Shown: positions 20,229-62,885, counted from the stretch's first letter. The stretch is 64,000 nucleotides of DNA from Candidatus Bathyarchaeota archaeon (GCA_963807605.1 CAWECG010000003.1:512001-576000), one strand, 5' to 3'. Notes: a model not told the origin generated them from the sequence alone. Made by a program: numbers and translations.

Positions 20229-20243
20229 GATATAAACTTTGTC
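20229..20243 (-). promoter_or_regulatory. BRE/TATA of the thermosome operon
   Basis: Minus strand GACAAAG-TTTATATC about 75 nt upstream of ATG. Confidence 0.55.
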
Positions 20244-20250
20244 GCGCGTA

Positions 20251-21329
20251 TGCTGTGTTGCGCGACTAGGTTTCAGTGATGTTTTTCGCTTTTGTTGGCT
20301 GTCTTCAGGTTTCGTCTAGCCGTGTGTTGCTGTGGTTGTTTCTATCAGCATGTTGTATAGTGAGGCTTTGATCATCATCTCCTGTGCCATGTTTTGCATC
20401 GTTTTGGCTGAGACGTATTCTCCGAAGGTTCGCTTCAGCGATGAGAAGGCTGATTCAGCCATCCATCTATACCCGTAGCCATGATTGTGTTTCCAGGCTT
20501 CAGGGTCTTTGAGGTATTCTTGGGCTACGAGCTTTCTGGGCATGCATCCTCCGGCCCTGCTGGATGTGTTCTTGCGCACCTTGATGGCTGGCTCAATCCC
20601 TTTTGCGTTGAGATAGCGGAAGTTGCTTTTCATATCGTATGCTCCGTCGCCAATTGCCTTGGCGACCTTACCTTTCTTGGAGGCTTCATCAACAAGCGGC
20701 TGGAGCATCCCTCCGTCACCTGTCTTCTCATCCGTCACCTTCAAGGCGAGTATCTTCTTCCGCTTTACATCAACGGCGATATGGATCTTGAGGTATCCGC
20801 GTCTCACCTTCCATTTATGGCGTATCCATTCGCCGCGGTTAGCCACCTTGATGCCTGATGCGTCCACCGCCAGGACTATGTCGTCGCCATAATCTTTCTC
20901 ATCCAGCTTCACATCTAACCTGTTCACGCGTCTATCTATGGTTGAATAGTCAGGCACATGGATCCTTGAGTCGAATCTTCTCAGGGCTTTGAGGAATCCT
21001 TCTGTCTGCCTGTAGGGTAGGTGGAATAGCAGGTGCATGTAGCCTAGAAGCCTGATGAAGATCTCAGGGTAGACGTATTGTCCACCTTCCTTCCCAGTAT
21101 TCATCTTTTCAAGCTCAATGTTCCACCTGTCAAGGATGCGTGGGTCAAGCAGGATCTCCCCACGCTTCACGAGACCCTCATTGATGCGTCTCCAATCTCT
21201 AGCAGCCAATCACAATCGTGGAATAGTTCTCTCACAGGCAATATAGATCATCCAACCACTTCCACGTCAATAAACCGAAAACTCAAACCTACATCCATAA
21301 ACAAAAATGTCTAGTCATGCAACACAGCA
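20251..21329 (-). mobile_element. IS5-family insertion sequence, apparently complete
   Basis: TIRs TGCTGTGTTGCGCGACTAG / CTAGTCATGCAACACAGCA; 8-bp TSD CGCGCGTA at 20243-20250 and 21330-21337. Confidence 0.93.
20316..21209 (-). CDS. IS5-family DDE transposase
   Basis: PDYSTI, AVDASG, KIHIAVD, GDGAYD, YGYRWMAESAFSSLK. Confidence 0.95.
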   Translation of the reverse strand: MAARDWRRINEGLVKRGEILLDPRILDRWNIELEKMNTGKEGGQYVYPEIFIRLLGYMHLLFHLPYRQTEGFLKALRRFDSRIHVPDYSTIDRRVNRLDVKLDEKDYGDDIVLAVDASGIKVANRGEWIRHKWKVRRGYLKIHIAVDVKRKKILALKVTDEKTGDGGMLQPLVDEASKKGKVAKAIGDGAYDMKSNFRYLNAKGIEPAIKVRKNTSSRAGGCMPRKLVAQEYLKDPEAWKHNHGYGYRWMAESAFSSLKRTFGEYVSAKTMQNMAQEMMIKASLYNMLIETTTATHG

Positions 21330-21454
21330 CGCGCGTAGGTACTGTCAAGTCTTCGTCTGATCGCTAGGGTTGTAAAAATTCGTCGGATAACTATCACGAC
21401 ATAAATGGCTTCTGAGGAATGATTACATATCTTGGTGCACATTCATTTGGATGT

Positions 21455-21844
21455 ATGATTTGGTATCCTTCCGACGATGACGTAATCTGCCTCAATTGGG
21501 TGGTTCTTGAAATGTCGCGTGACAAACACCCTCACAAACTCTTGGGGTCAAGAGAAGGAATACGAGCAATCATAGATAGCGTCAAACATCAAGAGCAAGG
21601 GGGGTTAATCTTTCAAGCCGCACTCTTGTTGAAGAACTTTGCCGAGAAACATATATTTGATGGTGCAAACCATAGAACCGCCTACGCAGTGACTAAGAGT
21701 TTCTTGACAAGGAATGGTAAACGTTTCCGAGTTAGCACTCTAAATGAGGCGTATCCATTTATTAAGAACCTTGAGGTACACGATATAGAAGAAATTCAAA
21801 GGTGGATAGAGCATGGAGAAGAAGGGTTGCCAAGAAAACCCTAA
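21455..21844 (+). CDS. Fic/Doc family protein
   Basis: HIFDGANHRTA variant Fic motif. Confidence 0.8.
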   Translation: MIWYPSDDDVICLNWVVLEMSRDKHPHKLLGSREGIRAIIDSVKHQEQGGLIFQAALLLKNFAEKHIFDGANHRTAYAVTKSFLTRNGKRFRVSTLNEAYPFIKNLEVHDIEEIQRWIEHGEEGLPRKP

Positions 21845-21926
21845 CCTAGCCTTCTTTAGGGAGATTCTTGAAGAGGACATACCTCTACTGAAGATGCTCG
21901 CCACTAATGGCAAGCATAAGGAATAG
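21813..21926 (+). CDS. 37-aa putative antitoxin/partner of the Fic/Doc protein
   Basis: MEKKGCQENPNLAFFREILEEDIPLLKMLATNGKHKE overlaps the Fic 3' end; below the ORF-track length cutoff. Confidence 0.45.
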   Translation: MEKKGCQENPNLAFFREILEEDIPLLKMLATNGKHKE

Positions 21927-21943
21927 AGGTTAGAGTGGCTGTT

Positions 21944-22492
21944 TCAAGTCATTTGACTTGCGTTTTGTATCAACGTTAGCCACTTGTTCTTTCCTTCGAC
22001 TTTGATTCCACATGCTTCTGCTGGTGTCTTACCCTCTAGGGCTTCATGTGGTCGCATGTAGTTGTGGAATATCTGGTAGCCCTTCAGAATGGGAGTATCG
22101 GTTTTCTTCAGTCCTCGCATGACCTTCTCTCTATCTCTGACTTCCCCGTTGAACCGTTCCATCTTGTTATTATTTCTATCACCCTGTATTCTGATGTGGC
22201 TGATATGCTGAGGTCTAGGTTGCTGGTGTTGCCAAAACTCCTTACGATAAGCATCATGATAAGCTGGTAGTCCATCAGTGATTAGTAGCATAGGTTTCTT
22301 GCCTGTGAGTTCCTTGCCCTTGCGGAACAAGTTTCGAGCATCATGAGTAAACTTGGTATCGGCTACTTCTTGAACTATCCAGAAACGAGTCTCATCATCC
22401 ATGAGGGCGAAAACATACTTCATGTTGCCTCTGAACTTTACGAAAAGCTCGGGAACTATCTTGCGACACTCGGCGAATTTGCTGAAGCGCAA
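21944..22492 (-). pseudogene. IS6-like DDE transposase, 5'-truncated/internally deleted
   Basis: ELFVKF..KYVFALMD..TRFW, ITDGL, NNKMERFNG, HNYMRPH..L.GKTPAE; the first catalytic D (W..DE) is missing. Confidence 0.8.
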
Positions 22493-23148: not shown

Positions 23149-23628
23149 ATGAGCGTAGATACTGAGAACAATAAAGACCAGGAAATCGAGAAGATCAAAA
23201 TGAGAGCCTTGCATGAGATCCAGAAGCAAGCAAAGACCCAGCAGAGTCAGACTGAAGCCCTGAAGGCTTTGGGCGGTAAACCGATAGACCTTACGGATTC
23301 AAACTTTTTTTCTGTTGTTAACAAGTACCCACTGATGCTGATCGATTTCTGGGCGCCATGGTGTGGGCCTTGCAGAATGGTTTCCCCTACTATAGATCAA
23401 CTGGCAAAGCAGTATTCGGGCAACATTGCATTTGGAAGAGTCAATGTTGACGAAAATCCAACGACTGCAAGTCAATTTGAGGTACAGGGCATCCCCACGC
23501 TCTTGATCTTTCAGCATGGGAAAGCAATTGATAGACTCGTCGGCGCATATCCAAAGAACACCATCGAATCGCGGCTCCAGGCACATCTAGGGAATGGTTC
23601 TGCTCCATCTGCCGGCGCATATCGATAA
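23149..23628 (+). CDS. trxA: Thioredoxin
   Basis: DFWAPWCGPC, GIPT. Confidence 0.95.
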   Translation: MSVDTENNKDQEIEKIKMRALHEIQKQAKTQQSQTEALKALGGKPIDLTDSNFFSVVNKYPLMLIDFWAPWCGPCRMVSPTIDQLAKQYSGNIAFGRVNVDENPTTASQFEVQGIPTLLIFQHGKAIDRLVGAYPKNTIESRLQAHLGNGSAPSAGAYR

Positions 23629-23680
23629 TCAATCAAAATGCGTTTTGATTGAAACGTTGGGAGATGGAACTGTAAGCGAA

Positions 23681-23820
23681 ATGATTCCAGCAACAACCTC
23701 AAACGGCCAGCAAGTTCTTATTATGAAAGAGCGGTCTCAGCAGACAAAGGGAAAGAAAGCGCAGCAAAACAACATATTTGCTGGCAAACTGCTAGCCGAA
23801 CTCATCAAAACAAGCTTGGG
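23681..23820 (+). pseudogene. 5' fragment of a third thermosome gene
   Basis: GQQVLIMKERSQQTKGKKAQQNNIFAGKLLAELIKTSLG aligns with [39 protein letters not shown]; ends at ACGCGCGCGT. Confidence 0.85.
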
Positions 23821-23831
23821 ACGCGCGCGTA

Positions 23832-23945
23832 AATTATCAAGATCGAGAACGCATGAAACGGTGCCTAGGCATTTTCGAAGACTTCTGCATTGTTACCCAA
23901 AGCGTCAGGAATGGCATCAATGTCCAGGTTGCCGTCCAGTCCTGA
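23832..23945 (+). pseudogene. 3' fragment of an OsmC-family gene
   Basis: RMKRCLGIFEDFCIVTQSVRNGINVQV* begins right after ACGCGCGCGT. Confidence 0.7.
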
Positions 23946-23961
23946 GTGGAGGTGATTGCAT

Positions 23962-24138
23962 ATGGCGAAGAAGTTCAAATGCGCTGATATTGGTATGAAG
24001 TGTGGCTTCGAAGCTACGGCCAACACGACCGATGAACTAATGCCCAAAATTGCCGACCACGCTAAGGCTGCACATGGAATGACCGAGATACCCAAAGATA
24101 TACTTGCAAAGGTCCAAGCGGCGATAAAGGACATTTAG
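23962..24138 (+). CDS. DUF1059 small metal-binding protein
   Basis: FKCADIGMKCGFEA...DHAKAAHGM; GGAGGTGA SD. Confidence 0.88.
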   Translation: MAKKFKCADIGMKCGFEATANTTDELMPKIADHAKAAHGMTEIPKDILAKVQAAIKDI

Positions 24139-25720: not shown

Positions 25721-25950
25721 TTTCAGCTCCTTTTCTTATAACTGCTTCAAGCATTCTCTCTATGTTGTAGTATCCCTGCGGTGTGCACACACAATAATTT
25801 CTCTGTAGGAAGTGGAAAACCTCTAAGACCTCTCTTTAATTAGGCAGATACATTTGCCATCTGAGGACGTGCTTAGAATGTAACAATTTTCTCGCAATCC
25901 CTTATCATCTCATACAAATCTTTCATCGTTGACAGTGGACACATTTCAGA
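25721..25950 (-). repeat. ~230-bp inverted repeat, left arm (partner 32618..32845)
   Basis: Reverse complement matches TCTGAAATGT...AGAAAAGGAGCT with scattered substitutions. Confidence 0.92.
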
Positions 25951-29198: not shown

Positions 29199-29422
29199 GC
29201 GCGCGAACGTAATTTGAATCAAAATCTTGTCATCGTGTTAGTTCTATTGATTGTAGTCAGTGGAGCCTTAGCAATACTCGGCTACTATGGTGTTAGAACC
29301 CCCTAAGACAGAAGACCTAACACCTTCTCCAACCATAAGCCCCGACACCCAGTAATAAGGCCAAGAATCGGCAAAGCGAAATCTAGCGCGCTATTCTTTT
29401 TCTTTGCGTAATGCCTATATAA

Positions 29423-38185: not shown

Positions 38186-38384
38186 TGTGAAGACCTACGC
38201 TAAAGTAAGTCGCAGATGTAACAGTTTGATTCAAAGAGTGAGTCTGTATGCGCTGACTGACTCTTGACTAATCGAGTATAGCGTGTCCGAAACAATATTG
38301 TGGCGGGCACAACGGGTTCCGATGCGTCATTGGTGCTGGAACTGATTTCAAAATTCGCAAAGGTTCGGGCCTCGAACCGCGCGC

Positions 38385-40481: not shown

Positions 40482-40687
40482 TCGAATCGGGGGCGTTTTC
40501 CAGCGCGCGCTAGACTGGTATACATTTCATAGATACTCAAATCCCTTCATCTGAGCGTCGTGGTAAGTGTCTATGTTTACGCCCGCATGCGCGTGTCCCT
40601 ACGCACGGGTGAAAAGCCTAAAAGACTGGAACTTGGGAGGGTAATGCTGGGTCTTAAAAAACGCCATTTTTTGGTGGAGGTCTAGGG

Positions 40688-42691: not shown

Positions 42692-42838
42692 GAGAAAGCC
42701 GAAAACCTCAAGAACTGTAGCCTCTACCTCGCGCGCTACAGAATAACCGAAACGACGACGTCGAGGTGGGTTCAGACTAGAATTGAACTATACAGTGAAA
42801 AATCAATATAGTTCGTCATCCTGAGTAATCCGAATAAG

Positions 42839-43946: not shown

Positions 43947-44096
43947 CTCCCCTCATGTTGGGGAAAGAATTCCCCAAACCCCTTCTTTATTTTACGGATG
44001 GCTCGCTACGCTCGCTCAGAGATACACACAGCGACGCGCGCTAGATACTCAAATCTTTATGAACGTCTAAAACAAGCCAAAATCTGAGGGATTGTA

Positions 44097-46357: not shown

Positions 46358-46610
46358 AGCCCGCGTGCGTGATTGCTTTTTTGTCTTCAATTCTGAGATC
46401 CACAATTTACTAACAGCAGCGGATCATTTGCAAGTTGCTAGTCAAGAATTAGTTCGTCTCTTTCTTGGAAAGAAATACGATTCAGTTTAACCGCTGGGAC
46501 CATTATTCGGGTTAGATCTGGTAGCAAAGTGGGGTAAATTCTGGAAATTCCCTAAATAGGCTGTGATGCCATGCAGCTAAAAGAACACAGGATGTTGCTA
46601 GCGCGCGCTT

Positions 46611-46694
46611 GTTGATTTGGCAGCTCTGTTGGCATGGATCGTCGTGCTACAGGCACTAGCAATCATCGTATTGAACAAAAAGTCACGGGTTTAG
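46611..46694 (+). pseudogene. 3' fragment of a third ABC-2 permease paralog
   Basis: VDLAALLAWIVVLQALAIIVLNKKSRV* vs VDVAALLVWVVVLQMLAVIVLNKKMEF*; starts right after AGCGCGCGCT. Confidence 0.8.
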
Positions 46695-46773
46695 TTAACT
46701 AGAGGCGTGATATCCAATCAGAAGCACGCTGGCTTGCTTTCGTTCTAAGGTCACGCGCGCGAACCTTATGGAA

Positions 46774-47133
46774 TCAGATTGATGTCCCTACGTACGATAC
46801 TTGTGTTGACTGAAGAGGTGTCTTCCCACTTATCCACTTAGCTTTAAACATTGAGAATCCGGGTAACTGATCTGACATAACAGTCGCATTTGCTTCTCCG
46901 TTAACCAACGTTAGTTTCACATTTTTAGATGAGTCTTTGAAGTGTATGCGACTTTCATTGTTTATTGAGAGTTCCACGACATCATCCCTGGAGGTTGCAA
47001 TCTGGCCTCCGTCGGTCACAGCGGCGACTCGAATTGTCTTTTCAGTTGACCTCTCTATTCCTGGCAAAAATATTACCAGGCGCGTTGCTTCTAGTTCTTT
47101 CTTCTGGTCGGGTTCAGACTTCGTTTTATCCAT
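46774..47133 (-). CDS. Small Ig-like beta protein, paralog of 59946..60410
   Basis: ATRL, SR.D.V.L, L.NG.A shared with 59946..60410. Confidence 0.65.
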   Translation of the reverse strand: MDKTKSEPDQKKELEATRLVIFLPGIERSTEKTIRVAAVTDGGQIATSRDDVVELSINNESRIHFKDSSKNVKLTLVNGEANATVMSDQLPGFSMFKAKWISGKTPLQSTQVSYVGTSI

Positions 47134-47173
47134 TATGCGGATCCTTCTAAAGTGATTGCAGCTACGCGCGCGT

Positions 47174-47345
47174 AACCGTTGAAGAGTAGGAGTAATAAGG
47201 CTTCTCATCATCCTTGGTGACGCCTAAGCCTATCAACACATCATCAGCATCAAGGAACCTGTAGAGTTCCTCACAGCTTTCGACCCGCCTCAAACGTTTA
47301 ACAAGCTCAGCCCTGAACATGCCAAGCATGACTGGGTATGGGGCT
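47174..47345 (-). pseudogene. Transposase-like N-terminal fragment
   Basis: PYPVMLGMFRAELVKRLRRVESCEELYRFL resembles IS4/IS5-type (DUF772-like) N-termini; ends at ACGCGCGCGT. Confidence 0.45.
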
Positions 47346-47548
47346 CATCGATCTTCTCATCAAAAACTAGTATACGTCTACATGTTAACCAATAGAATAT
47401 AGCAAGAAGCTCGACCGTATGAATCAGTACTGCCTAGTTAGTGTCGAGAATGGTCTGATAACCCTAAAGACGATACGCAAGTCAGGTTTAACACGCGCGC
47501 GTTCGCGCCCATTCATGTCCTAGTGAGTCTCACTTTTCTTAAAGACAT

Positions 47549-47950
47549 CTAGAGCTTTGATATAGACACCGCAATTTTTGGAGGATTCATCAAAGTATTG
47601 TGGACAGTGCAATGCTTGACCATTCTGATGATTGCCTGCTCCAGATCGGGATTAATGTCTTGTTTTAGGCCTATCCTTGCTTTGACCTCACCGATTCTTG
47701 AGGGGTTTTTGGTCATTTGCCATTCCAAGTCTATTTTCATGTTCTCAGATGGAATTTTGTGGCGGTCACAGAAGATTTTGGCGTAGACTCCTATGCAGCA
47801 GCCTAGTGATGAGGCGAATAATTCAACAGGGGTCATCCCGGTGTCTTCACCTTCTTCCTCAAGAGGCTGGTCTGAGACTATTTGGTGTCCTCTACATTCT
47901 GCATTAAACTTCCAACGCCCTACGTTGGATATCTCTATGCGCATACTCAC
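47549..47950 (-). CDS. OsmC family protein
   Basis: DQP...GEDTGMTPVELFASSLGCC, HCTVHNTL. Confidence 0.9.
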   Translation of the reverse strand: MSMRIEISNVGRWKFNAECRGHQIVSDQPLEEEGEDTGMTPVELFASSLGCCIGVYAKIFCDRHKIPSENMKIDLEWQMTKNPSRIGEVKARIGLKQDINPDLEQAIIRMVKHCTVHNTLMNPPKIAVSISKL

Positions 47951-48076
47951 ATCTCTATCTGGGTAAGTTCACCCTCTATGACCAAAGCAATTCCCCGTGT
48001 CGATTACGTGCCAACGTACCTAATTGGCAGGCAAAGGTGTAACCCCAAGGTCCGTCTCGGCAAATGTCTACGTTTG

Positions 48077-48586
48077 CTAGACCACATCCAGCAGAATTTC
48101 GACAGTCCACTTTGCAGCTTTCCCAACAACATCCGGACACTTATCTGTGTGTCCTCCTGCTTTGTTGAATTCTTCACGTTCCTTGGGATCCCACAAGTTG
48201 TAGGATCTTCCCATGATCTTCGTCTGGACATCTTTGCAGAGGATGCTTCCATATTCTTCTATGAATTTGTCGTGGAGCTTTTTGGAAAGGGTCATACATT
48301 TCTCTCTTTGTCCGAGGTTTGGGAATTCTTCACGACCATATCTTTGACTTATAGCCGCCACACCGCCTGAAAGAGCACCGCACGTTCCGTTTCCTGTGCG
48401 ACCTAATCCTCCAGCCAGTCCATCGATCGCTTTAAAGATCTCCTCGTTTCTTTTTCCTAGAACTTCGCTGAAAGCTGCAAAGACACATTGTGAACAGCTA
48501 CCGTATTCCCTCTCAAAATTGAAACCTAGCTCATAAGCACGTTTCATCAAGTCTTCTTTGTCTGACTTAACCAAACACTTCACCAT
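48077..48586 (-). CDS. C-GCAxxG-C-C family redox protein
   Basis: CSQ, GGLG..G.TCGALSG, GSILC, KC. Confidence 0.88.
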   Translation of the reverse strand: MVKCLVKSDKEDLMKRAYELGFNFEREYGSCSQCVFAAFSEVLGKRNEEIFKAIDGLAGGLGRTGNGTCGALSGGVAAISQRYGREEFPNLGQREKCMTLSKKLHDKFIEEYGSILCKDVQTKIMGRSYNLWDPKEREEFNKAGGHTDKCPDVVGKAAKWTVEILLDVV

Positions 48587-50160: not shown

Positions 50161-50527
50161 TTTTGAATTGGTAAAGTACATAGCGCAAGCTTAAATTGAG
50201 ATGCGTGTTGGCTAACTCCCGTCCGAGCAGTCTGTTGTTTTGAGCAGTGCGTGCAGGGGATGCCGACGACCCCTCGCTCATGATTTCGCGATAGTAAAAT
50301 AGTCATATATGCCCTGTACAAATACATCAAGCCCTAGGCAGACTCACACATCGACGACAACTGTTACTAAGTTCCATCTCTTTTCTTCCACAACTATTTT
50401 CTGACCTCGATCCTAATTACACATCAACAGAGTGCGCTAGAATCGATTTGGTGATGAGGCGCTCACACGCGCGCGAAACGAACGAAAGGACATGGTGGAC
50501 TGGTCGGGGTCCGCAGCGTTTTCGCTT

Positions 50528-50728: not shown

Positions 50729-50780
50729 TCTGTATCCCGAGTCAACGGCTATTTCAAGAATCTTCGCGCTTGAAAACAGG

Positions 50781-53104: not shown

Positions 53105-53495
53105 TTCACCCTTATTGTAGCACTAATGGCGACAGCCCGCCGCAGTACTAGAACATCGAGATTTCTCTTCACATTACGTCTCCTCCATATCTCTATCCTC
53201 CACATCGTAAGTATGTTATATATAGTGTTTACCGAGTGGCCAATTGTAAGCATAGAAGCTTACAAAAATACCAAAATTCTGTTATTTCAAAGCATTGTTG
53301 CTCATCCAAGACATTAGGTCTCATTTTGGAGAGAGAGTCTCCAGAACGCTTGCGTTCCGTCTTCTGGTGAGCAGCCACGCTATTCCATCGATGCTGGGAT
53401 GTGGGAGAAATCAGTTTGAGCCATAATGCTTAACAGTAGATAGAGCATATGGAAAATTCAGTTGCTCTTTATTCGCAAGACTTGAGGGAGGATGC

Positions 53496-54002: not shown

Positions 54003-54077
54003 GACGTGCAAAGAATTACTTCAAACCCCGAAATCTCTCAAACGTACAACGTCGCGTGCGCCCTAAAATTCGAAATG

Positions 54078-54133
54078 CTTATATGGCGTTATGAATAGCT
54101 ATTCAATTGCAGTTATGAATATACATGCATAAT
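54078..54133 (+). promoter_or_regulatory. TATA plus two tandem GTTATGAATA-type operator sites
   Basis: CTTATAT, then GTTATGAATAGCTATTCAATTG (54088) and GTTATGAATATACATGCATAAT (54112). Confidence 0.65.
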
Positions 54134-54147
54134 CGGAGGTGAGGTAT

Positions 54148-54393
54148 GTGCCGTGTGGAGATGGAACAGGTCCTTGGTGGGCGAAGGAAGGAAATTGCAG
54201 ACACGGAGAATGAAGAAGAGGACACCACTGGAGAAGATCTTCTAGTGAGACAACATTCGAATTAACAGAGCTGACAAAGGAAGAGCAGAGGAAAATATTG
54301 CAGGTCGAGCTTATAGAAATTGATGCCGAAAGACGAAGGGTGGAGAAGAGACTGAAGGAATTGGGGTCATCGGAATCAAAGAATGAAAACTAA
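54148..54393 (+). pseudogene. DUF5320-family protein with one in-frame TGA (54211-54213)
   Basis: GGAGGTGA SD; MPCGDGTGPWW...E*RRGHHW...LTKEEQRKIL..E...VEKRLKEL in one frame. Confidence 0.65.
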
Positions 54394-55468: not shown

Positions 55469-55917
55469 TGCCAAGACCACAGTGTTTCCGGAGAGTCTGG
55501 TTCGAACCAAATTTCACTTATTTCAAGCCAGCAGGAATAAGGATGATTGATTTGGAAGAATCGATCCTCACCGTAGATGAATTCGAGGCCGTTAGACTGA
55601 AAGATTTAGAGGCGTTGGATGAACATGCAGCAGCCAAGAAAATGAACATATCTCAACCTACTTTTAACAGAATCGTTTCCTCAGCAAGAAAAAAAATCTC
55701 TGATGCCATTGTAAACGGAAAAGCAATCAAAATCGAGGGAGGCAACTTCAAACTGGTTCGAGCGCCAAAGAGAAGATTCAGATGCTGTGATTGTGGTAAT
55801 GCATGGGAACTTGCACAGATGCGAGCTCCTTCATTGTGTCCAAAATGCAAAGGCAAGAACATTCAGAGACCTCATACACACGCGAATAGTGCACCGGATC
55901 GTAAACTCTCTCGATGA
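55468..55917 (+). CDS. DUF134 (UPF0251) HTH protein with C-terminal zinc ribbon
   Basis: MPRP..R, YFKPAG, DEFEAVRLKD, ISQPTF.RI..SARKK, GKAIKIEGG, C..C...CPKC. Confidence 0.9.
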   Translation: MPRPQCFRRVWFEPNFTYFKPAGIRMIDLEESILTVDEFEAVRLKDLEALDEHAAAKKMNISQPTFNRIVSSARKKISDAIVNGKAIKIEGGNFKLVRAPKRRFRCCDCGNAWELAQMRAPSLCPKCKGKNIQRPHTHANSAPDRKLSR

Positions 55918-56049
55918 AGTTACGCGCGCACAAGAGGTAACCATGCACACCTCTGAAGGAATTAGCTACAGGGTGTCTCGTCGAAGCTTGCTGGCTAGAG
56001 CGTACGCACATTTATTCTTGTAAGAAGAGTACTCTTGACAAGGGGCGAA

Positions 56050-57918
56050 TTATCTTCCCATAGACGGGAAGAGTTCTGGGTTTCCGGGAATGTAGAGAGC
56101 TGCATTATACTCTTCCATGAAGTCAGAGTCGACTGTTAAGTCATAGTAAGTCATCGTCTCAGCGATCTCTTCCGCCTCTGCACGCTTCTTTGCCGATAGC
56201 AGGGCAATATATGCGCCTGCAATTGAACCATTCCCAAGCTGAACCGTTTCTGCCTTTGGAAATTCTGGAAAGAGCCCGAGAGTCGTTGCGCTTCTTTGGT
56301 CTATATATCTGCCAAAGGCTCCAGCAAGATAGAGGTTTTCAATATCACTAACGGTTACACCGATTTTCTTCATCAGAACTGCTACTGAACCGCAGAGGGC
56401 AGCCTTTGAATCCATCAAGTTGTTAATGTCTCTTTGGGTGATCACTATGTCTTTTTGTAGGTCGTTTTCAGAGGTTGGAGACACAACATACTCCAAACCG
56501 TCGATACCTTCCCTTATGAAATCTGATTTCTTTTCTATTATCTTCCCACAGAAGTCAATTATCCCAGACCGGTACATCTCTGCCGCAGCATCTATAATTC
56601 CGGACCCGCATATGCCTCGGGGTTTACGTTCGGGGCCACCAATCACCTGGTAGGTCGATCTTAGAGTCTTCGGTTCTATCTTTATGCGCTCTATGGCTCC
56701 TTCTACAGAGCGGATACCAAATCTTATTCCCCAACCTTCGAAGGCCGGGCCTGCTGCACATGACGTGGAGAGGAGCCAACCTTTACTTCCAATAACGATT
56801 TCCCCGTTCGTTCCCATATCCACTAGAATTGAGATTTCGGTCGATTGACACATTCCAGACGTTAAGACATCGGCTACTGCATCCCCCCCAACAAACCTGC
56901 TGACGTTAGGTAGGCAATACACTGAAGCGTTAGGGTTAGTCGTAATTCCGAATTTTTGAGCCTTACGTTGGATTGGATCTCGTGAAACCTGAACATTTGC
57001 ATTGACAAGATGCAATGGATCTAATCCTGCGAAAAGATATGTCATAACCGTATTTCCTGCGACAGTGAGATCGATTATCTCATCTGGAGCTATGTTGTTC
57101 CGGCTGATGATGGTTTCAACTATCTTATTTATAGTGTCGACAGAGGCTTTCTGTAATCTGTACAAACCTTCACTGCTTCTAAAGACGTAGTCAATTCTTG
57201 AGAGCAAATCTTCTCCATAGTTCAATTGTTCATTGTAACCTGACTCGATATCTATTATGCTGCCATCTCTAAAGTCTACTAGGTATGTTACAATCTTGGT
57301 CGTGCCAAGATCGATAGCTAACCCATAATTCCGCAGAGAAGTATCTCCAATATCGATGTCGACAACCTCAGACTGGCTGGCACACTTGTCCACGGTCACA
57401 GTGAGACCTTCGGCCCCTTGAATTTCCATTTTGTCAAGTTTCAGTAACGCGAGGTCGGAGAAAGGGATCTGTCGTCCGAATACATCTGTTACAAGACTAG
57501 AAATCTTTTGAACGCGTTCCGATCTCTCTTTAAGCTCGGCAAGATTCGCTCTCAGAAATTGCTTCCTACAACATGGGTCAAATTCGACTCTTGAGAAGAA
57601 CGCATTTGTTAGTATTTGTTGTCCTTCGAATCGACTTTCAGGCGGAATAACTACTCTAGTGTCAGCTAGCAATTGAGCCTGGCATGCAAGATGATATCCT
57701 CTAGTGTTATCATCTTGGAAGATGAACTTCTTGTATGAGTCTGATCTTTCGAGTACGTTACCTTCTTCAACAATGACTTTGCATTTACCGCAAGCTCCAA
57801 CACCCGCGCAAACACTTCGAATTTCGACACCAGCTTCTTGCGCTGCCTCTAGAATCGTTGAACCTTTCTTAACATTGACGCGCTTCCCTGTGGGTTGAAA
57901 TTCTACAGTAACCGTCAT
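56050..57918 (-). CDS. ASKHA-domain/2Fe-2S reductive activator of corrinoid proteins (RACo, DUF4445)
   Basis: CAGVGACGKC, DLGTT, DMGTNGE, AAGPAFEG, GICGSG, LAGAFG. Confidence 0.9.
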   Translation of the reverse strand: MTVTVEFQPTGKRVNVKKGSTILEAAQEAGVEIRSVCAGVGACGKCKVIVEEGNVLERSDSYKKFIFQDDNTRGYHLACQAQLLADTRVVIPPESRFEGQQILTNAFFSRVEFDPCCRKQFLRANLAELKERSERVQKISSLVTDVFGRQIPFSDLALLKLDKMEIQGAEGLTVTVDKCASQSEVVDIDIGDTSLRNYGLAIDLGTTKIVTYLVDFRDGSIIDIESGYNEQLNYGEDLLSRIDYVFRSSEGLYRLQKASVDTINKIVETIISRNNIAPDEIIDLTVAGNTVMTYLFAGLDPLHLVNANVQVSRDPIQRKAQKFGITTNPNASVYCLPNVSRFVGGDAVADVLTSGMCQSTEISILVDMGTNGEIVIGSKGWLLSTSCAAGPAFEGWGIRFGIRSVEGAIERIKIEPKTLRSTYQVIGGPERKPRGICGSGIIDAAAEMYRSGIIDFCGKIIEKKSDFIREGIDGLEYVVSPTSENDLQKDIVITQRDINNLMDSKAALCGSVAVLMKKIGVTVSDIENLYLAGAFGRYIDQRSATTLGLFPEFPKAETVQLGNGSIAGAYIALLSAKKRAEAEEIAETMTYYDLTVDSDFMEEYNAALYIPGNPELFPSMGR

Positions 57919-58178
57919 AGACCGCTACAACTCTTGCAGTTGACTTCACTGATGTCGAACATACCGGAACCCGCGTTGCACTCAAGATGTTTTGTCATGG
58001 CACAATCCTAACAGGGGCAGACGGAAAGTTTGCAGCTTAACACGCACTATCTGCATCCTTGCGTCTGGGCTTTTTCAACAGTCATATCTTAGACCATTTT
58101 TCTCCATGTAAGTGAGGAGGCCGATTTCTCCTTCGGCGAAGCGCGCGTACAAATCATAGAAAGGTTAGCGCGTTAAAC

Positions 58179-58212
58179 GAAACTTTATTAGTTATGAATA
58201 TTTATTCGTTAC
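58179..58212 (+). promoter_or_regulatory. BRE/TATA plus palindromic operator GTTATGAATATTTATTCGTTAC
   Basis: GAAA-CTTTATTA directly followed by the palindrome at 58191, upstream of mrp. Confidence 0.65.
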
Positions 58213-58455
58213 TATTGTTAAGCCAAGAAGATGTAGATCGGTGAGTCGTTCATTATATACTTCAAACCGATTGGTGTGTCTTTGACGGTGCTGGAACAGT
58301 TTAGCTTGGTAGTCGATAGGCTCGAAGCAGGACGCTCAAGATGTTGGAAGGACAAACACTAGAGGGCTACTTGCAGGTGTATGGAATTCATTGTTTTACC
58401 AGACTCGTGCAAGAAAGCACATGCTACATGACGTAATAAAACAAGGTGAAGTTAG

Positions 58456-59376
58456 ATGAAAACTGAATGCGAGGGAGAATGTGATTCTTGCGAAGAACCG
58501 GATAATTGTGATGATAATAAAAAACGCATTTACGATGAGCAGAAGATGCTTAAGATCAGAATGGGAAAGGTGAAGCATAAGATAGCCGTAATCAGCGGCA
58601 AGGGTGGAGTTGGAAAAAGCATCACCACCGTCAATTTGGCCATCGCCCTTGCCGGACACAGCCATACTCACGAAGTAGGTATACTGGACGCCGATATTCA
58701 CGGTCCATGTGTTCCTAAGATGCTGGGCATGAGAAGTCAGCGACTTAATGCCGGACCTCGAGGAGTCTTCCCAGCAACCGGTCCACTTGGAGTAAAAGTC
58801 GTTTCAACCGATTTCCTCCTTCCAAAAGACGAAACCCCAGTCATCTGGCGCGGTCCGCTCAAGATGGCAGCCATACGCCAATTCCTATCAGAGATCATCT
58901 GGGGCAATCTGGACTTTCTTCTTATCGATCTTCCCCCAGGAACCGGGGATGAGTCCTTGAGCGTCATGCAGTTACTGCCAGAGATGGACGGTGTAGTAAT
59001 AGTCACAATTCCGTCAGAGGTCTCGCAGATTGTAGTCAAGAAGGCAGTAACCTTTGCTAGGCAATTGAAGATCCCAATAATAGGCATAGTGGAAAACATG
59101 AGCGGGTTCGTCTGTCCAAAATGCGGCGAAGAATCCAACATTTTCAAATCTGGTGGCGGCAGAAAAGTCGCAGAGGATCTAAAGGTTCCCTTCCTCGGAA
59201 GTATACCTCTAGACCCTAGAATCTGCGAGGATTCCGATAATGGCAGACCGTTCATACTGGAGAATCCAAACTCTCCGTCAGCAGGAGCATTCATGGAGAT
59301 CGTTGAGAGAATAGAGACATTTCTAAGAGAAAAGGCGGATGAGCCGGGACCTTCAACCCTTGCAGAATGGAAATGA
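58456..59376 (+). CDS. mrp: Mrp/NBP35 Fe-S cluster carrier ATPase
   Basis: N-terminal Cys cluster, SGKGGVGKS, DADIHGP, WRGP, DLPPGTGD, ENMS.F.CPKC. Confidence 0.93.
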   Translation: MKTECEGECDSCEEPDNCDDNKKRIYDEQKMLKIRMGKVKHKIAVISGKGGVGKSITTVNLAIALAGHSHTHEVGILDADIHGPCVPKMLGMRSQRLNAGPRGVFPATGPLGVKVVSTDFLLPKDETPVIWRGPLKMAAIRQFLSEIIWGNLDFLLIDLPPGTGDESLSVMQLLPEMDGVVIVTIPSEVSQIVVKKAVTFARQLKIPIIGIVENMSGFVCPKCGEESNIFKSGGGRKVAEDLKVPFLGSIPLDPRICEDSDNGRPFILENPNSPSAGAFMEIVERIETFLREKADEPGPSTLAEWK

Positions 59377-59402
59377 CATCGAATTTTCAAAGGTGAGTCG
59401 AT

Positions 59403-59837
59403 ATGCCGATTAACATGGGAGATGATGTTTTGGTTCATTATACTCTGAAGCTTGAGAGTGGAGATATTATTGAAACGACCCGAAAAGGAGAGCCTTTCTT
59501 AGCCAAGATCGGTTCACATGATCTGTTACCAGAATTAGAACGAGTCCTCATCGGACTGGACAAAGGACATAGAAAGGAGGTCAAGATCCCTCCAAGTAAA
59601 GGGTATGGCGAGAGAAGAGAAGGGCTGCTTCATGAGATTCCCAAATCTAGACTTACAAGCGAACATGAACCTTCCAAGAATATGTTTGTTGACATCTTCA
59701 GTAAAGACGGAAATCGCAGTGTGGTTACCATTCACGATGTAAAGGAAGACTCCGTAGTCTTAGATCTTAACCATCCTCTAGCCGGACGAACTTTAGTGGT
59801 TGACATCGAAGTAGTCGACATATTTCCCGGCGCGTAA
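59403..59837 (+). CDS. slyD: FKBP-type peptidyl-prolyl isomerase (SlyD-like)
   Basis: VHYTL, GYGER, LDLNHPLAGRTL. Confidence 0.88.
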   Translation: MPINMGDDVLVHYTLKLESGDIIETTRKGEPFLAKIGSHDLLPELERVLIGLDKGHRKEVKIPPSKGYGERREGLLHEIPKSRLTSEHEPSKNMFVDIFSKDGNRSVVTIHDVKEDSVVLDLNHPLAGRTLVVDIEVVDIFPGA

Positions 59838-59945
59838 TATGAGGAATGTAAACCAAGACTCGGCTTAATTCTGGGGGGTTTTAGTTTCCCTGTGTAGTTT
59901 GTAGCTGAAGTACATGTTGCTTAGTGTCATGAGGAGGAAAATGAT

Positions 59946-60410
59946 ATGCGCACGAAACTCACGCCACCAGAGATAAGGAGCATACAACGGGTATTTTCTT
60001 TAGTCCTCCTTATCGCGATTATTCTCGTAGTTTCTTCCAGTCTGTGGTCTGAAGTCAGATTTACAACGCCAAATGAGCAGGGCGCCACCAGACTGATAAT
60101 TGTCCTTGAGCGTGTCCACGTAGGAGTTGGCGATTCCAAAGAAATGACTATAAGAGCAGTTGACCAAGCTGGAGTTGTCGACAAAAGCCGAAATGACCTG
60201 GTGCAACTGAATCTAACCTCGTTGAGCCGTGAAAACACCACTACCAAGCTGAGTGTCAATGAGCTCAGACTGGAAAATGGCTCAGCTAACGTGTATATTA
60301 CAGGTCCCATAGCAGACCTAGTGAAGGTAACTGTAACTTGGAAGGAGGGAAGATCAAAACTTGAGCCTGGAGAAACCCTCATCCAAGTTGGGAGTTTCGA
60401 AGGAACATGA
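59946..60410 (+). CDS. Membrane-anchored Ig-like protein, paralog of 46774..47133
   Basis: N-terminal TM, beta-rich domain. Confidence 0.7.
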   Translation: MRTKLTPPEIRSIQRVFSLVLLIAIILVVSSSLWSEVRFTTPNEQGATRLIIVLERVHVGVGDSKEMTIRAVDQAGVVDKSRNDLVQLNLTSLSRENTTTKLSVNELRLENGSANVYITGPIADLVKVTVTWKEGRSKLEPGETLIQVGSFEGT

Positions 60411-60527
60411 TCTACATGCGCGCTTTGGTTCTAGCCTGATCTTGATATCCTAAGAACTTCTAGGCAAATAGGTGATATTGCCGCAACAACGTTAGGTAAG
60501 CAACAAGAGCACTCATCTCTAGAGGTG

Positions 60528-60622: not shown

Positions 60623-60741
60623 GCGCGCGCTGCAAAAGTTCTATTGGGGATCACTATAGGCTATTCATAGAAGCATAACCAAGGGCCAAAGCAACTCGTA
60701 AAAGCGTTGAGAACGATGATCTCTTTTTGAAGGCGTGATAA

Positions 60742-61653
60742 GTGATAGGCCAAGACAGGACGATAGAACTTGTGAGTATGTCAAGGCAGCCTATGCCTTC
60801 AGTCGAGAAGCTGAGGGTGACTGTTCTTGTCGAAGATTCAGTGACTATGGAGAAGCCTGATCTGGTAGCCAAACATGGCTTGTCTTTTCTAATTGAAACA
60901 AGCTTCGCAGGCACCAATTCTAGAATTCTTGTCGATGCTGGCCCTCCACCTGACATAGCATTACAGAACGCGGACATAATGGGCGTTAGCTTGCAAAAAG
61001 TAGATGCAATATTCATCAGCCATGGACACTACGACCATGCAGGAGGACTGCTAGAGATTCTGAAGAGCATAAACAAACCGATACCTGTGCTCGCTCACCC
61101 AAGAATCTTCAGCCCCAAGTTTGCTCATAAACCAAATCTGAAGTACATCGGGCTAGGATACGATCCATCATCCATCACGAACACAAGAGGAGCGTTGATC
61201 CTAGCGCGAAATCCGGTCAAAATAATGGATGGTGTAACAACAAGTGGTGAAGTTGCGAGAGAGACCATTTTCGAGAAAGCCGAAGGATTATGGACCGTGG
61301 AGAATGAATGTTTCATGCAGGACGCTGTCATCGACGATCAAGCCCTAATTGTCAATGTCAGTGGCAAAGGTCTTGTTGTTGTAACGGGCTGTGCACACTC
61401 GGGAATCATAAATACGGTTAAACATGTCCAGAAGACAACTGGAATAAACAATGTCCACGCCATCCTAGGAGGCTTACATCTAGCCAATGCGGACGACAAG
61501 AGAGTTCAAACAAGCATAGACGAACTTGTAAGAAACAAGGTTGGGTCTATCTATCCTTGTCACTGCACAGGTTCCAAAGCGATCCATCAACTTCAAGAAA
61601 CCCTAGGATACCGTTGCAAACCTATTCATACTGGAGACATAATCGAACTCTGA
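60742..61653 (+). CDS. MBL-fold hydrolase of the archaeal dihydropterin-RFAP synthase-like family
   Basis: HGLSFLIE, ISHGHYDH.GG, DDQAL, TGCAHSG, GGLHL, PCHCTG. Confidence 0.85.
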   Translation: MIGQDRTIELVSMSRQPMPSVEKLRVTVLVEDSVTMEKPDLVAKHGLSFLIETSFAGTNSRILVDAGPPPDIALQNADIMGVSLQKVDAIFISHGHYDHAGGLLEILKSINKPIPVLAHPRIFSPKFAHKPNLKYIGLGYDPSSITNTRGALILARNPVKIMDGVTTSGEVARETIFEKAEGLWTVENECFMQDAVIDDQALIVNVSGKGLVVVTGCAHSGIINTVKHVQKTTGINNVHAILGGLHLANADDKRVQTSIDELVRNKVGSIYPCHCTGSKAIHQLQETLGYRCKPIHTGDIIEL

Positions 61654-61719
61654 CTCTGTACACCATAAAGATCAGTCGTATGCGATTAGTTCCGTTAAAT
61701 TGCAAATGAGCGTGATGAA

Positions 61720-62535
61720 GTGCCCGGCCAAATCATTAGGGAATTGTTGGCACATATAGAAAAGAAGATCCCCGACATAGACAACCTGAAAGTATGTGAT
61801 GTCCGCATTGGACTCGGTTACACGGGCGTAAAGTTGAGTACGGGCCAAGCTGGCGTGTGTCACACCTTAGCAGATGAACCAGTTTGTTGCCAGAAAATCG
61901 ACCGTGCCGGAACATTCTCTGGGAGCTTGGCTCTGGAAATCGCTAGATTGGCAGATTCCTGGAAGCTTGGAGAGGCTGTGGTTGGCGTCGCAACCATAAA
62001 CGCTCTTTCCGAGATAGTGCTTCAAACAAGTACTGACAGATATTCGATTACTGAGAACGCAGACTGCACAGATCAAATAGAGATCAACAATGATGATACC
62101 GTAGCGATGGCAGGTTACATCAGACCGTTCATCCCCTTCATTAGAAGCAAAGCCAAGACACTCTACATAATGGAAAGGAATCCAAGAGTGCAGGATGAAG
62201 ACGTATTACCCGACAGTGCATGCTCAGAGATAATTCCAAAAGCTGACATAGTCATCATCACGGGAACTGCAGTCGCAAACGGAACGATAGACACCCTCCT
62301 TGAGCTGTCGAGAAATGCCAGAGAAGTCGCGGTGGTAGGCCCTACTGCAAGTATGATCCCCGACCCCTTATTCAAGCGCGGAGCAACTATGATGGGTGGA
62401 ATCAGCGTCACCAACAGTGAGAGGCTGCTGCAAGTGATATCGGAGGGCGGTGGAGTACCTCAATTCAAGAACGCTTGTAGACAGATGGTGATCAGACCGA
62501 GAAAGGGACGTGCTCTGAATTCACGTGTTAAGTGA
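61720..62535 (+). CDS. DUF364 domain protein
   Basis: VRIGLGYT, GVATINA, DIVIITGT...NGT, VGPTAS. Confidence 0.85.
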   Translation: MPGQIIRELLAHIEKKIPDIDNLKVCDVRIGLGYTGVKLSTGQAGVCHTLADEPVCCQKIDRAGTFSGSLALEIARLADSWKLGEAVVGVATINALSEIVLQTSTDRYSITENADCTDQIEINNDDTVAMAGYIRPFIPFIRSKAKTLYIMERNPRVQDEDVLPDSACSEIIPKADIVIITGTAVANGTIDTLLELSRNAREVAVVGPTASMIPDPLFKRGATMMGGISVTNSERLLQVISEGGGVPQFKNACRQMVIRPRKGRALNSRVK

Positions 62536-62553
62536 AGCCGAGGATATCAATCA

Positions 62554-62833
62554 ATGTCTCAGAACGAAGATATTTTGGCCTTCGGCCCTGTTCCATCGAG
62601 GCGCCTAGGGCGAAGCCTGGGCATAAACAATATCCCAGCAAAGGTATGCACCTATTCTTGCATCTACTGCCAATTGGTAGAACAACAAGGCTTCGGATTG
62701 ACAGACAACGATTTCATGACCTCGAATCGATATCTGCACAGGTGGAAAAGAAGGTTAACCAATCCAGAACTGCGCAGCAACCCATAGATTATCTCACTTT
62801 CGTCCCTGATGGAGAACCAACTCTAGACGTAAA
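62554..62833 (+). pseudogene. Radical SAM gene, frameshifted and truncated
   Basis: [26 protein letters not shown], then DYLTFVPDGEPTLD in another frame; ends at GCGCGCG. Confidence 0.85.
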
Positions 62834-62885
62834 GCGCGCGAACCGCGAGTTAACATACTAGGCAACGAAAAGGAGGTGAACACGT

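Follow-up and report, generated by a model that had tools for sequence, protein, structure and literature searches.

Short alternating G/C palindromes at DNA joints in an uncultured Bathyarchaeia archaeon: possible scars of break repair with a fixed filler

The 2.65-Mb genome of an uncultured Bathyarchaeia archaeon contains short palindromic runs of alternating G and C that mark joints between unrelated DNA segments and the points of gene truncation; as the original prediction had it for part of the window (the whole 64-kb stretch analyzed here), this holds genome-wide and in comparison with the congeneric genome G001. The intact source or ortholog almost never has a run at the corresponding breakpoint, that is, the run is new at the joint. 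The motif therefore looks like a fixed patch added when ends are sealed rather than a pre-existing site for cutting and shuffling, and we favor, with moderate confidence, the interpretation that the runs are scars of break repair in which ends are joined through a fixed self-complementary filler.

The motif unit is tA(GC)4Ta, with the ten-letter palindrome A-GCGCGCGC-T inside it; A precedes the run in 82% of cases and T follows it in 81%, and no conservation is seen beyond two positions on either side. Genome-wide, GCGCGCGC is found 298 times vs about 17 expected, CGCGCGCG 214 times vs about 14, and A(GC)4T 106 times vs 1.4, whereas T(GC)4A is found once, with one expected; symmetric forms are favored. 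The lengths of the runs (6 nt, 321; 7 nt, 127; 8 nt, 198; 9 nt, 74; 10 nt, 36) show a secondary peak at 8. The excess over the Markov background, which the original prediction proposed to count, is thus strong; the run positions that it listed are all correct. Under order-1 to order-3 models, chance yields about 0.8 runs of at least 8 nt per 64 kb; the window has eight 8-nt runs (at 23822, 40503, 46601, 46754, 47165, 47494, 50468 and 60623), ten of 7 nt and eight of 6 nt. The window has one run per 8 kb, which is also the mean density for the genome; the feature is therefore one of the genome and the lineage and not, as had been suggested, of a local cassette-like region: the motif is spread across the whole genome and several genera of the family.

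About 87% of the runs of at least 8 nt are non-coding, vs 21% of the genome according to a crude gene finder, and in the window only the runs at 5468 and 45685 are inside real CDSs, so that the reported avoidance of coding DNA stands. The intergenic location, and a palindrome that would suit a dimeric binding protein, would be expected of a regulatory or transcription-termination signal. This reading is nevertheless highly improbable: convergent, divergent and tandem spacers all hold runs roughly in proportion to their length, with no preferred orientation or position relative to genes, at variable distances from starts and stops, and without a T tract, conserved spacing or Rfam match; the runs are absent at orthologous positions and spacers of G001, and they sit at joints of fragments.

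The association with joints is quantitative. Among the 279 non-coding runs, 63 are located within 3 nt of a boundary of self-similarity, vs 10.0±3.2 for random non-coding 8-mers (49 vs 5.4 expected when only low-copy repeats are considered). The partner end is run-free in 150 of 182 HSP ends, which argues against recombination between pre-existing copies of the motif, and for 24 of the 72 joint sides with a run-free partner, the partner breakpoint is inside an intact predicted gene. The polarity of events was judged by gene integrity and parsimony. For example, C3:253659 (C1, C3, C4 and the like denote contigs) corresponds to C3:49070-49598 lacking 252 bp of an intact 145-aa ORF, with exactly GCGCGCGC in their place. 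The copy at C3:842697-843422 retains 58434-58615 and 59895-60428 of the window, the intervening 1279 bp, most of the NUBPL/ParA gene 58456-59376, being replaced by GAGCACGCGC; this copy, which corresponds to 47.5-60.6 kb of the window, also lacks 48615-58433 (9.8 kb), the seal being GGTAAGCGCGCGATT, and none of the four window breakpoints of these two deletions has a run. In a repeat-free region, both large indels relative to G001 (1.1 kb with a 393-aa ORF, and 837 bp inside a 302-aa open frame) have a run precisely where the short allele is joined, and G001 is run-free there. Among 19 metagenome loci with the 20-mer, 17 have the homologous radical SAM gene, uninterrupted and without a CG run at the equivalent of 62834, and two are unrelated sequence. 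Smaller replacements, of 4-6 nt overall, occur between otherwise collinear paralogs, in which 6 nt are swapped for a run of 9-10 nt.

That the run is new at the joint argues against the proposed cutting of CGCG or GCGC sites with a 4-nt stagger, followed by filling and rejoining: in every polarizable case the intact source or ortholog has neither GCGC nor a CG run. The other proposal, excision of an element with a 4-bp target duplication, is not supported either, since in no polarizable case are the flanks contiguous in the ancestor. As only 2-3 of 15 indels between collinear paralogs carry a run, run-bearing joining is at most one of several joining routes.

The joints have a characteristic anatomy: homology ends at the flanking A in 16 cases, where one extra base is unmatched it is A in 13 of 17 cases, and in 26 of 76 homology reaches 1-7 nt into the run. 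At 62834, for instance, the only extra letters are GCGC, GCG coming from the incoming segment. Under the favored interpretation, chromosome breaks in this lineage, whether due to a deletion, the capture of stray DNA or a duplication joint, would be sealed without a homologous template through a short filler with the core GCGCGCGC, usually with A before and T after it, sometimes as TA...TA. Most likely, a short tail of alternating G and C, often preceded by A, would be added to each 3' end, presumably by a dedicated enzyme; since the tails would be identical and palindromic, two of them could anneal, with gap filling and nick ligation to follow, and a G, C or A already present at an end would serve as microhomology. 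Because an insert of 8-10 bp breaks a reading frame, such scars would persist only in non-coding or already dead DNA; they would accumulate in the flexible parts of the genome and later decay through CpG transitions.

A different reading of the same joints is that pre-existing palindromes are hotspots of breakage or recombination, A(GC)4T having some other primary role or origin: it may be prone to form Z-DNA, bind a protein, or be a HIP1-like iterated palindrome maintained by biased repair. Several joints have the run in both copies (46754, C3:584290 and G001:C137; 50468 and C1:254610; 44035 and C1:520809), which also fits a run that traveled with its segment; runs occur in repeat-free bins too (0.27 per non-coding kb, where a joint is not demonstrable from one genome); and paralog pairs that differ by CpG transitions in the run, e.g., CGCGCGCG vs CGTGCACG, can be read in either direction. 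There is also a precedent, HIP1 (GCGATCGC), an 8-bp GC-rich lineage-specific palindrome of cyanobacteria that is tens to hundreds of times (15-300-fold) over-represented (PMC5861425, PMC4390886). The archaeal motif resembles it in being short, GC-rich, palindromic, over-represented and lineage-specific. HIP1 was first noticed at the borders of a deletion; however, it is abundant in genes, kept by selection and tied to orphan methyltransferases, whereas the present motif is nearly excluded from genes and unconserved at orthologous sites, and most motif-rich genomes gave no match to the C5-methylase family PF00145. The first two of these points speak against a HIP1-like iterated palindrome. Given, in addition, that the intact counterparts in polarizable cases are run-free at either breakpoint, that fragments with a full run on each side are not derivable from one broken run, and that the runs have no preference with respect to genes, a role as hotspots is unlikely.

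Within the window (Table 1), the truncations that had been claimed for the HxlR copy, the ABC-permease 3' fragment and the radical SAM gene are all found at runs (38378, 46601 and 62834, respectively), and the transposase fragment is an internal piece flanked by the runs at 47165 and 47494. The second HxlR copy is reduced to residues 1-37 (38384-38494, minus strand), and at the run at 62834 a duplication begins as well, at least 2.4 kb long and 99.9% identical to its copy at C3:309950. Two fragments of small genes can be added: the run at 29199 leaves only the first 56 residues in the copy of a 193-aa gene, whose source (C3:305990-306571) continues without a run, and at the site of the run at 60623 three intact paralogs read '...gctagaga' directly followed by 'TCAYGCG...'. 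The fragments reported for the thermosome, OsmC and a DUF1059-like gene could not be reproduced: the thermosome gene (18519-20156) is full length, and OsmC (47549-47950) is intact, the run at 47494 being located 48 nt beyond the OsmC stop codon, where a duplicated segment has its edge. The copies 50300-50474 and C1:254441-254616 both contain the run and diverge beyond it, and the edge of the 119-aa gene cassette bears a run in its paralog at C3:584290 and at G001:C137:20003 as well.

Table 1. Alternating G/C runs and related features of the window
Position	Strand	Feature	Remark
20243..21337	-	1079-bp IS (20251-21329), IS5 family, plus target duplication	
23822..23829		ACGCGCGCGT, between thioredoxin and DUF1059 genes	No joint shown
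29199..29205		GCGCGCG, end of duplicated segment 27852-29197	
38378..38384		CGCGCGC, joint of tandem HxlR-ABC module duplication	Modules 36071-38185 and 38384-40481
40503..40510		AGCGCGCGCT, 22 nt past ABC-2 permease stop codon	No joint shown by self-comparison
42730..42736		CGCGCGC, 39 nt past PD40-repeat gene	Similarity to C4 paralog stops at 42696
44035..44041		CGCGCGC, end of short repeat common to C1:520705-520815	Run in both
46390..48117		Mosaic of five unrelated fragments	8-nt run between each
46390-46600		segA, copy of C3:304543-304751	
46601..46608		AGCGCGCGCT, segA/segB joint	Both source copies without run: '...gttgcta' directly followed by 'AATA...'
46610-46682		segB, 3' end of ABC-2 permease gene	Copy of 40397-40469
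46754..46761		ACGCGCGCGA, 3' side of 119-aa gene cassette	
46757-47144		segC, near-complete copy of 119-aa gene	
47165..47172		ACGCGCGCGT, between 119-aa cassette and IS-X internal fragment	
47192-47411		Internal piece of IS X	Transposase aa 57-106
47494..47501		ACGCGCGCGT, between IS-X fragment and duplicated OsmC segment	Homology to C3:841708 begins 10 nt on
from 47512		OsmC segment	Copy relation with C3:841708
50468..50475		ACGCGCGCGA, end of segment 50300-50474	95% match to C1:254441-254616
55923..55929		CGCGCGC, spacer of the convergent genes DUF134 and RACo	No joint shown
58141..58147		GCGCGCG, upstream of RACo	No joint shown
58434..60428	+	Intact source sequence	Deletion derivative, C3:842697-843422
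60623..60630		AGCGCGCGCT, cuts copy of 61-aa gene after residue 35	
62834..62840		GCGCGCG, truncation of radical SAM 5' fragment	ORF 62532-62861, end ...FVPDGEPTLD

The mosaic at 46390-48117 resembles an array, and copied fragments of 52-1011 bp with runs on both sides, the sources having none, are found in the genome. Together with the favored symmetric forms and the presence in the genome of solo Cas1 genes and several DDE transposases, these structures are compatible with site-directed insertion, a mechanism not far from the original proposal, in which an integrase, transposase or nuclease would cut an 8-bp palindrome with an 8-nt stagger and insert arbitrary DNA, so that the palindrome would be duplicated, run-flanked cassettes formed and the number of runs increased. 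Such a mechanism leaves unexplained both the run-sealed deletions derived from a run-free ancestor and the replacements of 4-6 nt; for none of the flanked fragments did an empty site with one run turn up; and Cas1 was found in genus g5, which is free of the motif, but not in g4 and g7, which are rich in it. It is, accordingly, quite unlikely. An integron-like cassette system is not supported, because the partner end mostly lacks the site, the sources of run-flanked fragments lack it, and neither Cas1 nor the IS5-family X/Y transposases follow the sites across 31 genomes. Integron attC sites, REP/BIME elements and the mobile GC clusters of yeast mitochondria are 30-140 bp long, have structured arms and depend on dedicated recombinases or transposases; the likeness lies in short palindromes at cassette borders or rearrangement hotspots of non-coding DNA, whereas conservation in the present case is limited to 8-12 bp and the element is missing from the source copies.

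An assembly or library artefact, with chimeric joins through a GC linker, has no specific point in its favor and is scarcely credible: the excess of the motif is found in at least 10 genomes of the family from different assemblies, other genomes having none; run-bordered copies have diverged to 70-95% identity; the run at 47165 is bridged by a contig of an independent peat metagenome, 92% identical; and G001 shows run-marked breaks of its own.

The motif-rich genera of the family include g3, besides g4 and g7. Of the 16 genomes of the family, G000 alone gave a match to Ku and the other motif-rich genomes did not (MAG incompleteness applies); two motif-poor genomes of another family have Ku too. 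A Ku-dependent NHEJ filler is not supported, since Ku was not found in all genomes with scars. Neither an RVT_1 nor a Prim-Pol domain was found in G000, the genome in which they were sought, and Cas1 and the X/Y transposases do not track the motif across the 31 genomes. None of Ku, Cas1, C5-methylase and the GCGCGC-ended IS5 family follows the motif across relatives, and none of them, nor RVT_1 or Prim-Pol in G000, was identified as the enzyme behind the runs.

The closest known systems all differ, and no known enzyme explains the motif. The filler DNA of end joining includes N-nucleotides, templated insertions of NHEJ and alt-EJ, synthesis-dependent MMEJ and the terminal-transferase modes of Pol theta (PMC2943611, PMC4912351). 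It shares with the present runs extra nucleotides at deletion, capture and rearrangement joints, microhomology at the ends and capture of stray fragments, but known fillers vary or copy nearby DNA, whereas here one fixed palindrome of 8-10 bp is found, which does not imply a homolog of Pol theta, TdT or Pol mu and whose distribution is not matched by that of Ku. De novo telomere addition ('chromosome healing') likewise puts a short, fixed sequence on arbitrary broken ends; here, however, the addition is self-complementary, the ends are rejoined and uncapped, and no reverse transcriptase domain was found in the genome.

Among resident elements, the two related IS5-family groups X (~1137 bp) and Y (~1118 bp) have GCGCGC at their ends, mostly bordered by TA: 14 of 14 copies read (TA)GCGCGC...GCGCGC(TA), and the hexamer is part of the inverted repeat, also in homologs from other genomes. 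The footprint of Tc1/mariner-type excision consists of TA, end nucleotides and TA, and the 'nearly precise excision' of Tn10 leaves remnants. The runs could thus be TA(GC)4TA left by excision of X/Y or by nearly precise excision across their terminal repeats, with joints from IS-mediated deletions and composite transposition; the palindromic, TA-flanked form of the remnant fits, TA(GC)4TA is found 25 times vs 0.05 expected and TA(GC)3TA 9 times vs 1.07, and an internal X fragment lies between two runs of the mosaic. Nevertheless, such an origin is distinctly unlikely. The element ends match but the phyletic pattern does not: seven genomes (genera g3, g4 and g7) are rich in the motif but yielded no X/Y, and the motif-poor G008 and G012 have these elements. 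The outer T/A are at only ~41-49% vs 82% for the inner A/T; the product of the longest overlap, (GC)3, is almost without excess (A(GC)3T, 44 vs 27); there are 320 runs vs 14 IS copies; and the joints link unrelated DNA, with no TA target at the breakpoints of polarizable cases and no collinear 10-bp insertion among 13 runs inside paralog alignments.

The motif had also been taken for the target duplication of the IS5-family element in the window. An identical 8-bp direct repeat, CGCGCGTA, does flank this IS on both sides (at 20243 and 21330), but it accounts only for those two runs and is one of eight differing duplications. Each of the seven further full-length copies is flanked by an 8-bp duplication of its own, of arbitrary sequence, so that the element shows no preferred target; the window IS is not part of the motif phenomenon.

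The run coordinates of the original prediction are all correct, the window containing eight runs of 8 nt, ten of 7 nt and eight of 6 nt. The window corresponds to C3:512001-576000 of genome G000. Across the 2.65-Mb genome of this archaeon (G000; five contigs, 47% G+C), the run-length histogram declines from 4 to 7 nt and rises again at 8 nt (321 runs of 6 nt, 127 of 7 nt, 198 of 8 nt, 74 of 9 nt and 36 of 10 nt), and CGCGCGCG and GCGCGCGC are present in 214 and 298 copies, compared with about 14 and 17, respectively, expected under Markov models of order 1 to 3. The conserved unit is tA(GC)4Ta, with A at position -1 in 82% and T at position +1 in 81%; the outer T/A is present in 41-49%, and there is no conservation further out. 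The main form, the ten-letter palindrome A(GC)4T, occurs 106 times in the genome (1.4 expected), A(CG)4T 30 times (0.8 expected) and A(CG)5T 19 times (0.04 expected); T(GC)4A occurs once, with one expected, and A(GC)3T shows almost no excess. The 10-mer is likewise plentiful in the congener, G001, with 119 copies; it reaches 16-63 copies in several further genera of the family, and is scarce or absent in two genera of the family and in nine other sampled families of the order.

The predicted avoidance of coding DNA extends to the whole genome: by a crude gene finder, 87% of the runs of at least 8 nt are non-coding, compared with 21% of the genome. The share of runs in tandem, convergent and divergent spacers roughly follows spacer length. 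A function as regulatory or terminator signal is highly improbable given that the runs have no positional preference and are not conserved at orthologous sites; Rfam, promoter and terminator scans reveal nothing associated with them. Run density in the window, one per 8 kb, equals the genome average; along the contigs it is uneven, and repeat-rich bins contain 2.5 times as many runs per non-coding kb as repeat-free bins.

A self-comparison of the genome shows that the runs mark joints, i.e., meeting points of unrelated or rearranged DNA, as had been proposed from the window sequence: 63 of the 279 non-coding runs of at least 8 nt lie within 3 nt of a similarity boundary, compared with 10.0±3.2 expected for random non-coding 8-mers (500 trials, maximum 22). 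With low-copy repeats only, 49 runs are at boundaries (5.4±2.3 expected), and G001 has synteny breaks of its own marked by runs. Breaks at a run had been predicted for the HxlR copy and the radical SAM gene, and both are found (see the table). The predicted fragments of an ABC permease 3' end and of a transposase are likewise bounded by runs, as the mosaic divided by runs 46601 to 47494 contains the last part (73 bp) of an ABC-2 permease gene, a 119-aa gene present nearly in full and an internal stretch of an IS transposase.

Joints at runs in the window, and loci of IS X and Y
Feature	Position	Structure	Effect or related sequence
Run	29199	End of 1.35-kb duplicated segment	193-aa gene copy cut after residue 56
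Run	38378	Joint of tandem HxlR-ABC transporter module duplication	Second HxlR cut to 37 residues
Runs	46601, 46754, 47165, 47494	Dividers between five unrelated fragments	
Run	60623		61-aa gene copy cut after residue 35
Run	62834	Start of duplication of at least 2.4 kb, 99.9% identical	Radical SAM gene cut directly after GEPTLD motif
IS X/Y	L013 (G000:C3:162625-163743), L014 (G000:C3:1079166-1080302)	IS loci	Internal fragment at window 47192-47411

Three other predicted breaks were not reproduced. The thermosome gene (18519-20156) is full length, and its alignment with contig C4 reflects only paralogous coding similarity plus the IS; OsmC (47549-47950) is intact; and no DUF1059-like fragment is found. 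Pfam returned no match at E<=1 for ORFs 23594-23998 and 62532-62861 and none above its thresholds for ORF 46774-47211. The thermosome gene is one of two full-length tandem paralogues (16847-18505 and 18519-20156, 68% DNA identity), and further paralogues are encoded on C1 and C4. No joint is demonstrable at runs 23822, 40503, 42730, 55923 and 58141. In the area of the last two, RACo-anchored loci from 80 genomes show a neighborhood conserved within the genus only, and the 36-52 kb region of the window yields only scattered matches to G001 (70-92%), owing to the variability of the region and the fragmented state of G001.

Where the source of the rearranged DNA is available, it typically lacks the run. 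For 150 of the 182 similarity ends touching a run, none stands at the matching point of the partner copy, and of the 72 joint sides for which the best partner lacks a CG run within 15 nt, 24 have the partner breakpoint inside an intact predicted gene. At C3:253659, for example, a copy of C3:49070-49598 has exactly GCGCGCGC in place of 252 bp of an intact 145-aa ORF. Similarly, C3:841.7-844.3 kb is a collinear copy of the 47.5-60.6 kb region of the window with deletions of 9.8 kb, sealed by GGTAAGCGCGCGATT, and of 1279 bp, sealed by GAGCACGCGC; none of the four matching window breakpoints has a run, and the shorter deletion takes most of a NUBPL/ParA gene that is intact in the window. In otherwise collinear paralogues, 4-6 nt are exchanged for a 9-10-nt run. 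Among the 19 metagenome loci containing the 20-mer, 17 possess an uninterrupted homologous radical SAM gene with no CG run at the position of the window break, and two are unrelated sequence. Comparison of the repeat-free region C3:260-280 kb with G001 identifies two large indels, of 1.1 kb (holding a 393-aa ORF) and of 837 bp (within a 302-aa open frame), and in both cases the short allele, that of G000, has a run precisely at its joint whereas G001 has none there. Judged from these sequence comparisons, the run is new at the joint.

The possibility that pre-existing palindromes are hotspots for rearrangement agrees with the few joints at which both copies have a run; it disagrees with the polarisable cases, i.e., the joints whose intact source or orthologue shows the ancestral state, and is rather unlikely. 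Some of the copied fragments (52-1011 bp) have runs at both sides and a source without any, which is what a site-directed integrase duplicating an 8-bp target would yield; the deletions disagree with such an enzyme, and we consider it slightly less likely still.

The anatomy of 76 joint sides was compared. Homology ends exactly at the run in 17, of which 16 were re-scored and all have A as the flanking base; another 17 have a single additional unmatched base (A in 13 of them); at 26 joint sides, homology continues 1-7 nt into the run; and the remaining 16 have 2-6 additional bases, often with TA or AA at the end. At run 62834, GCGC alone is extra because the incoming segment already begins with GCG. 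Paralogue pairs sharing a run often differ by CpG transitions (e.g., CGCGCGCG and CGTGCACG), and some sealing sequences are the consensus with one transition; the CpG-transition differences fit the decay of what would be old scars.

The run pair at 20243/21330, described as an IS5 target duplication, does flank a 1079-bp IS as an 8-bp target duplication; the sequence of the pair reflects coincidence and no target preference, because seven other full-length copies have seven unrelated 8-bp duplications. Such arbitrary duplications eliminate this IS as an explanation of the runs. The element itself (20251-21329; DDE_Tnp_1 and DDE_Tnp_1_5) has eight copies in the genome that are 99.9-100% identical, and has been active recently, given the near-identity of the copies and their arbitrary target duplications. 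A different connection is suggested by two related IS5-family elements, X and Y (DDE_Tnp_1 and DUF772; 41% identical, seven copies each), all copies of which read (TA)GCGCGC...GCGCGC(TA) and are mostly TA-flanked. The GC hexamer is part of the inverted repeats, likewise in homologues from other genomes, and insertion of X/Y into the motif center with a 4-bp duplication was rejected on these grounds. All copies of Y have one in-frame TGA in the transposase frame. The runs could be remnants of these elements, as the unit tA(GC)4Ta resembles two abutted IS ends, TA-GCGC|GCGC-TA; however, no member of the X/Y family was found in seven motif-rich genomes, two motif-poor genomes do possess the family, the polarisable joints have neither a TA target nor a collinear insertion, and the longest-overlap product, (GC)3, is not enriched, so that this is a minor and improbable rival.

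The best-supported reading, in which we have moderate confidence, is that the runs are marks of a break-repair route that seals ends via a fixed self-complementary filler. Each 3' end would gain a short tail of alternating G and C, in many cases following an A; identical palindromic tails would pair, with a terminal G, C or A already present serving as microhomology; and gap filling and ligation would follow. Tail pairing would account for the fixed core and the preference for symmetric forms, for the sharp length peak at 8 nt and the lower numbers of 10- and 12-nt forms, and for the deletions, small replacements and captured fragments with a run on each side; the exclusion from coding DNA would result from selection removing a frame-breaking insert. 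Run-marked sealing is not the sole joining route, because only 2-3 of the 15 indels between collinear paralogues have a run.

Among candidate enzymes, the distributions of Ku, Cas1, C5-methylase and the X/Y transposase do not track the motif. A Ku homolog (L041, G000:C1:590767-591306, 137 bits) is found in G000 and not in other motif-rich genomes; among the 16 genomes of the family Ku was found in G000 alone, and it is also present in two genomes of a neighboring family. RVT_1 and Prim-Pol domains were not found in G000. A more speculative proposal, offered tentatively, is that several archaeal lineages possess a dedicated end-healing activity that uses a protein or a small nucleic acid as template to add a self-complementary (A)GCGC... 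tail of defined sequence to broken ends; any two ends would thereby become mutually sticky, driving gene loss, fragment capture and module shuffling and leaving a readable, datable scar per event.

An artefact is the least probable of the explanations considered, given the lineage distribution of the motif, the divergence of the copies and an independent peat-metagenome contig that spans run 47165. Only two public sequencing data sets, both peat metagenomes, match in small shares; their contigs are short and derive from relatives, and apart from the one spanning run 47165 they cover no joint.

The closest known phenomena include transposon footprints and telomere healing; the latter resembles the runs in the addition of a fixed sequence but differs in that the ends are capped. 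The filler DNA of end-joining junctions varies in sequence or is copied from a local template (PMC2943611, PMC4912351), unlike the fixed A(GC)4T of the proposed filler. The iterated palindrome HIP1 is located inside genes and linked to a methylase (PMC5861425, PMC4390886), in contrast to the mostly non-coding runs; a C5-methylase was not found in most motif-rich genomes. In none of these four does a fixed palindromic octamer arise de novo at non-homologous joints, and a literature search found no description of the octamer in archaea.

How double-strand breaks are repaired in the absence of homology is poorly understood for most archaea. Should the runs prove to be repair scars, they would document the sites and approximate times of DNA breakage and rejoining in an uncultured archaeon, so that events of gene loss, duplication and fragment capture could be read off and counted in genome sequences. 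They would in that case also indicate an end-joining chemistry based on a fixed palindromic filler, with no described counterpart in any domain of life, which might serve as a sequence-defined DNA-joining activity. The signature is lineage-specific and can be profiled against gene content; therefore, the repair question can be tested directly. In annotation, the runs show where pseudogenes end and where modules border.

Several other features of the window deserve mention. Comparison with contig C346 of G001 shows that the small ORF 50528-50728 is what is left of a longer gene for a membrane protein, and that G000 has 154 additional bp (50710-50863). The ABC ATPase ORF 51404-51925 spans only profile positions 1-96 of 137 and is probably a truncated gene, and 21944-22492 is an IS6/IS240-type transposase fragment with several diverged copies elsewhere in the genome. 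The segment 43850-44015 contains two copies of a ~45-bp unit (..GCTCTCACCAGCTATGGCACACACA..) and one GGCTCGCTACGCTCGC block, both repeated at dozens of genome sites. A 229-bp inverted repeat (25722-25950 and 32618-32845, 95% identical) encloses a 6.7-kb segment with ArsR-type regulators, a cysteine desulfurase-like gene and a row of small genes, which may be invertible or mobile.
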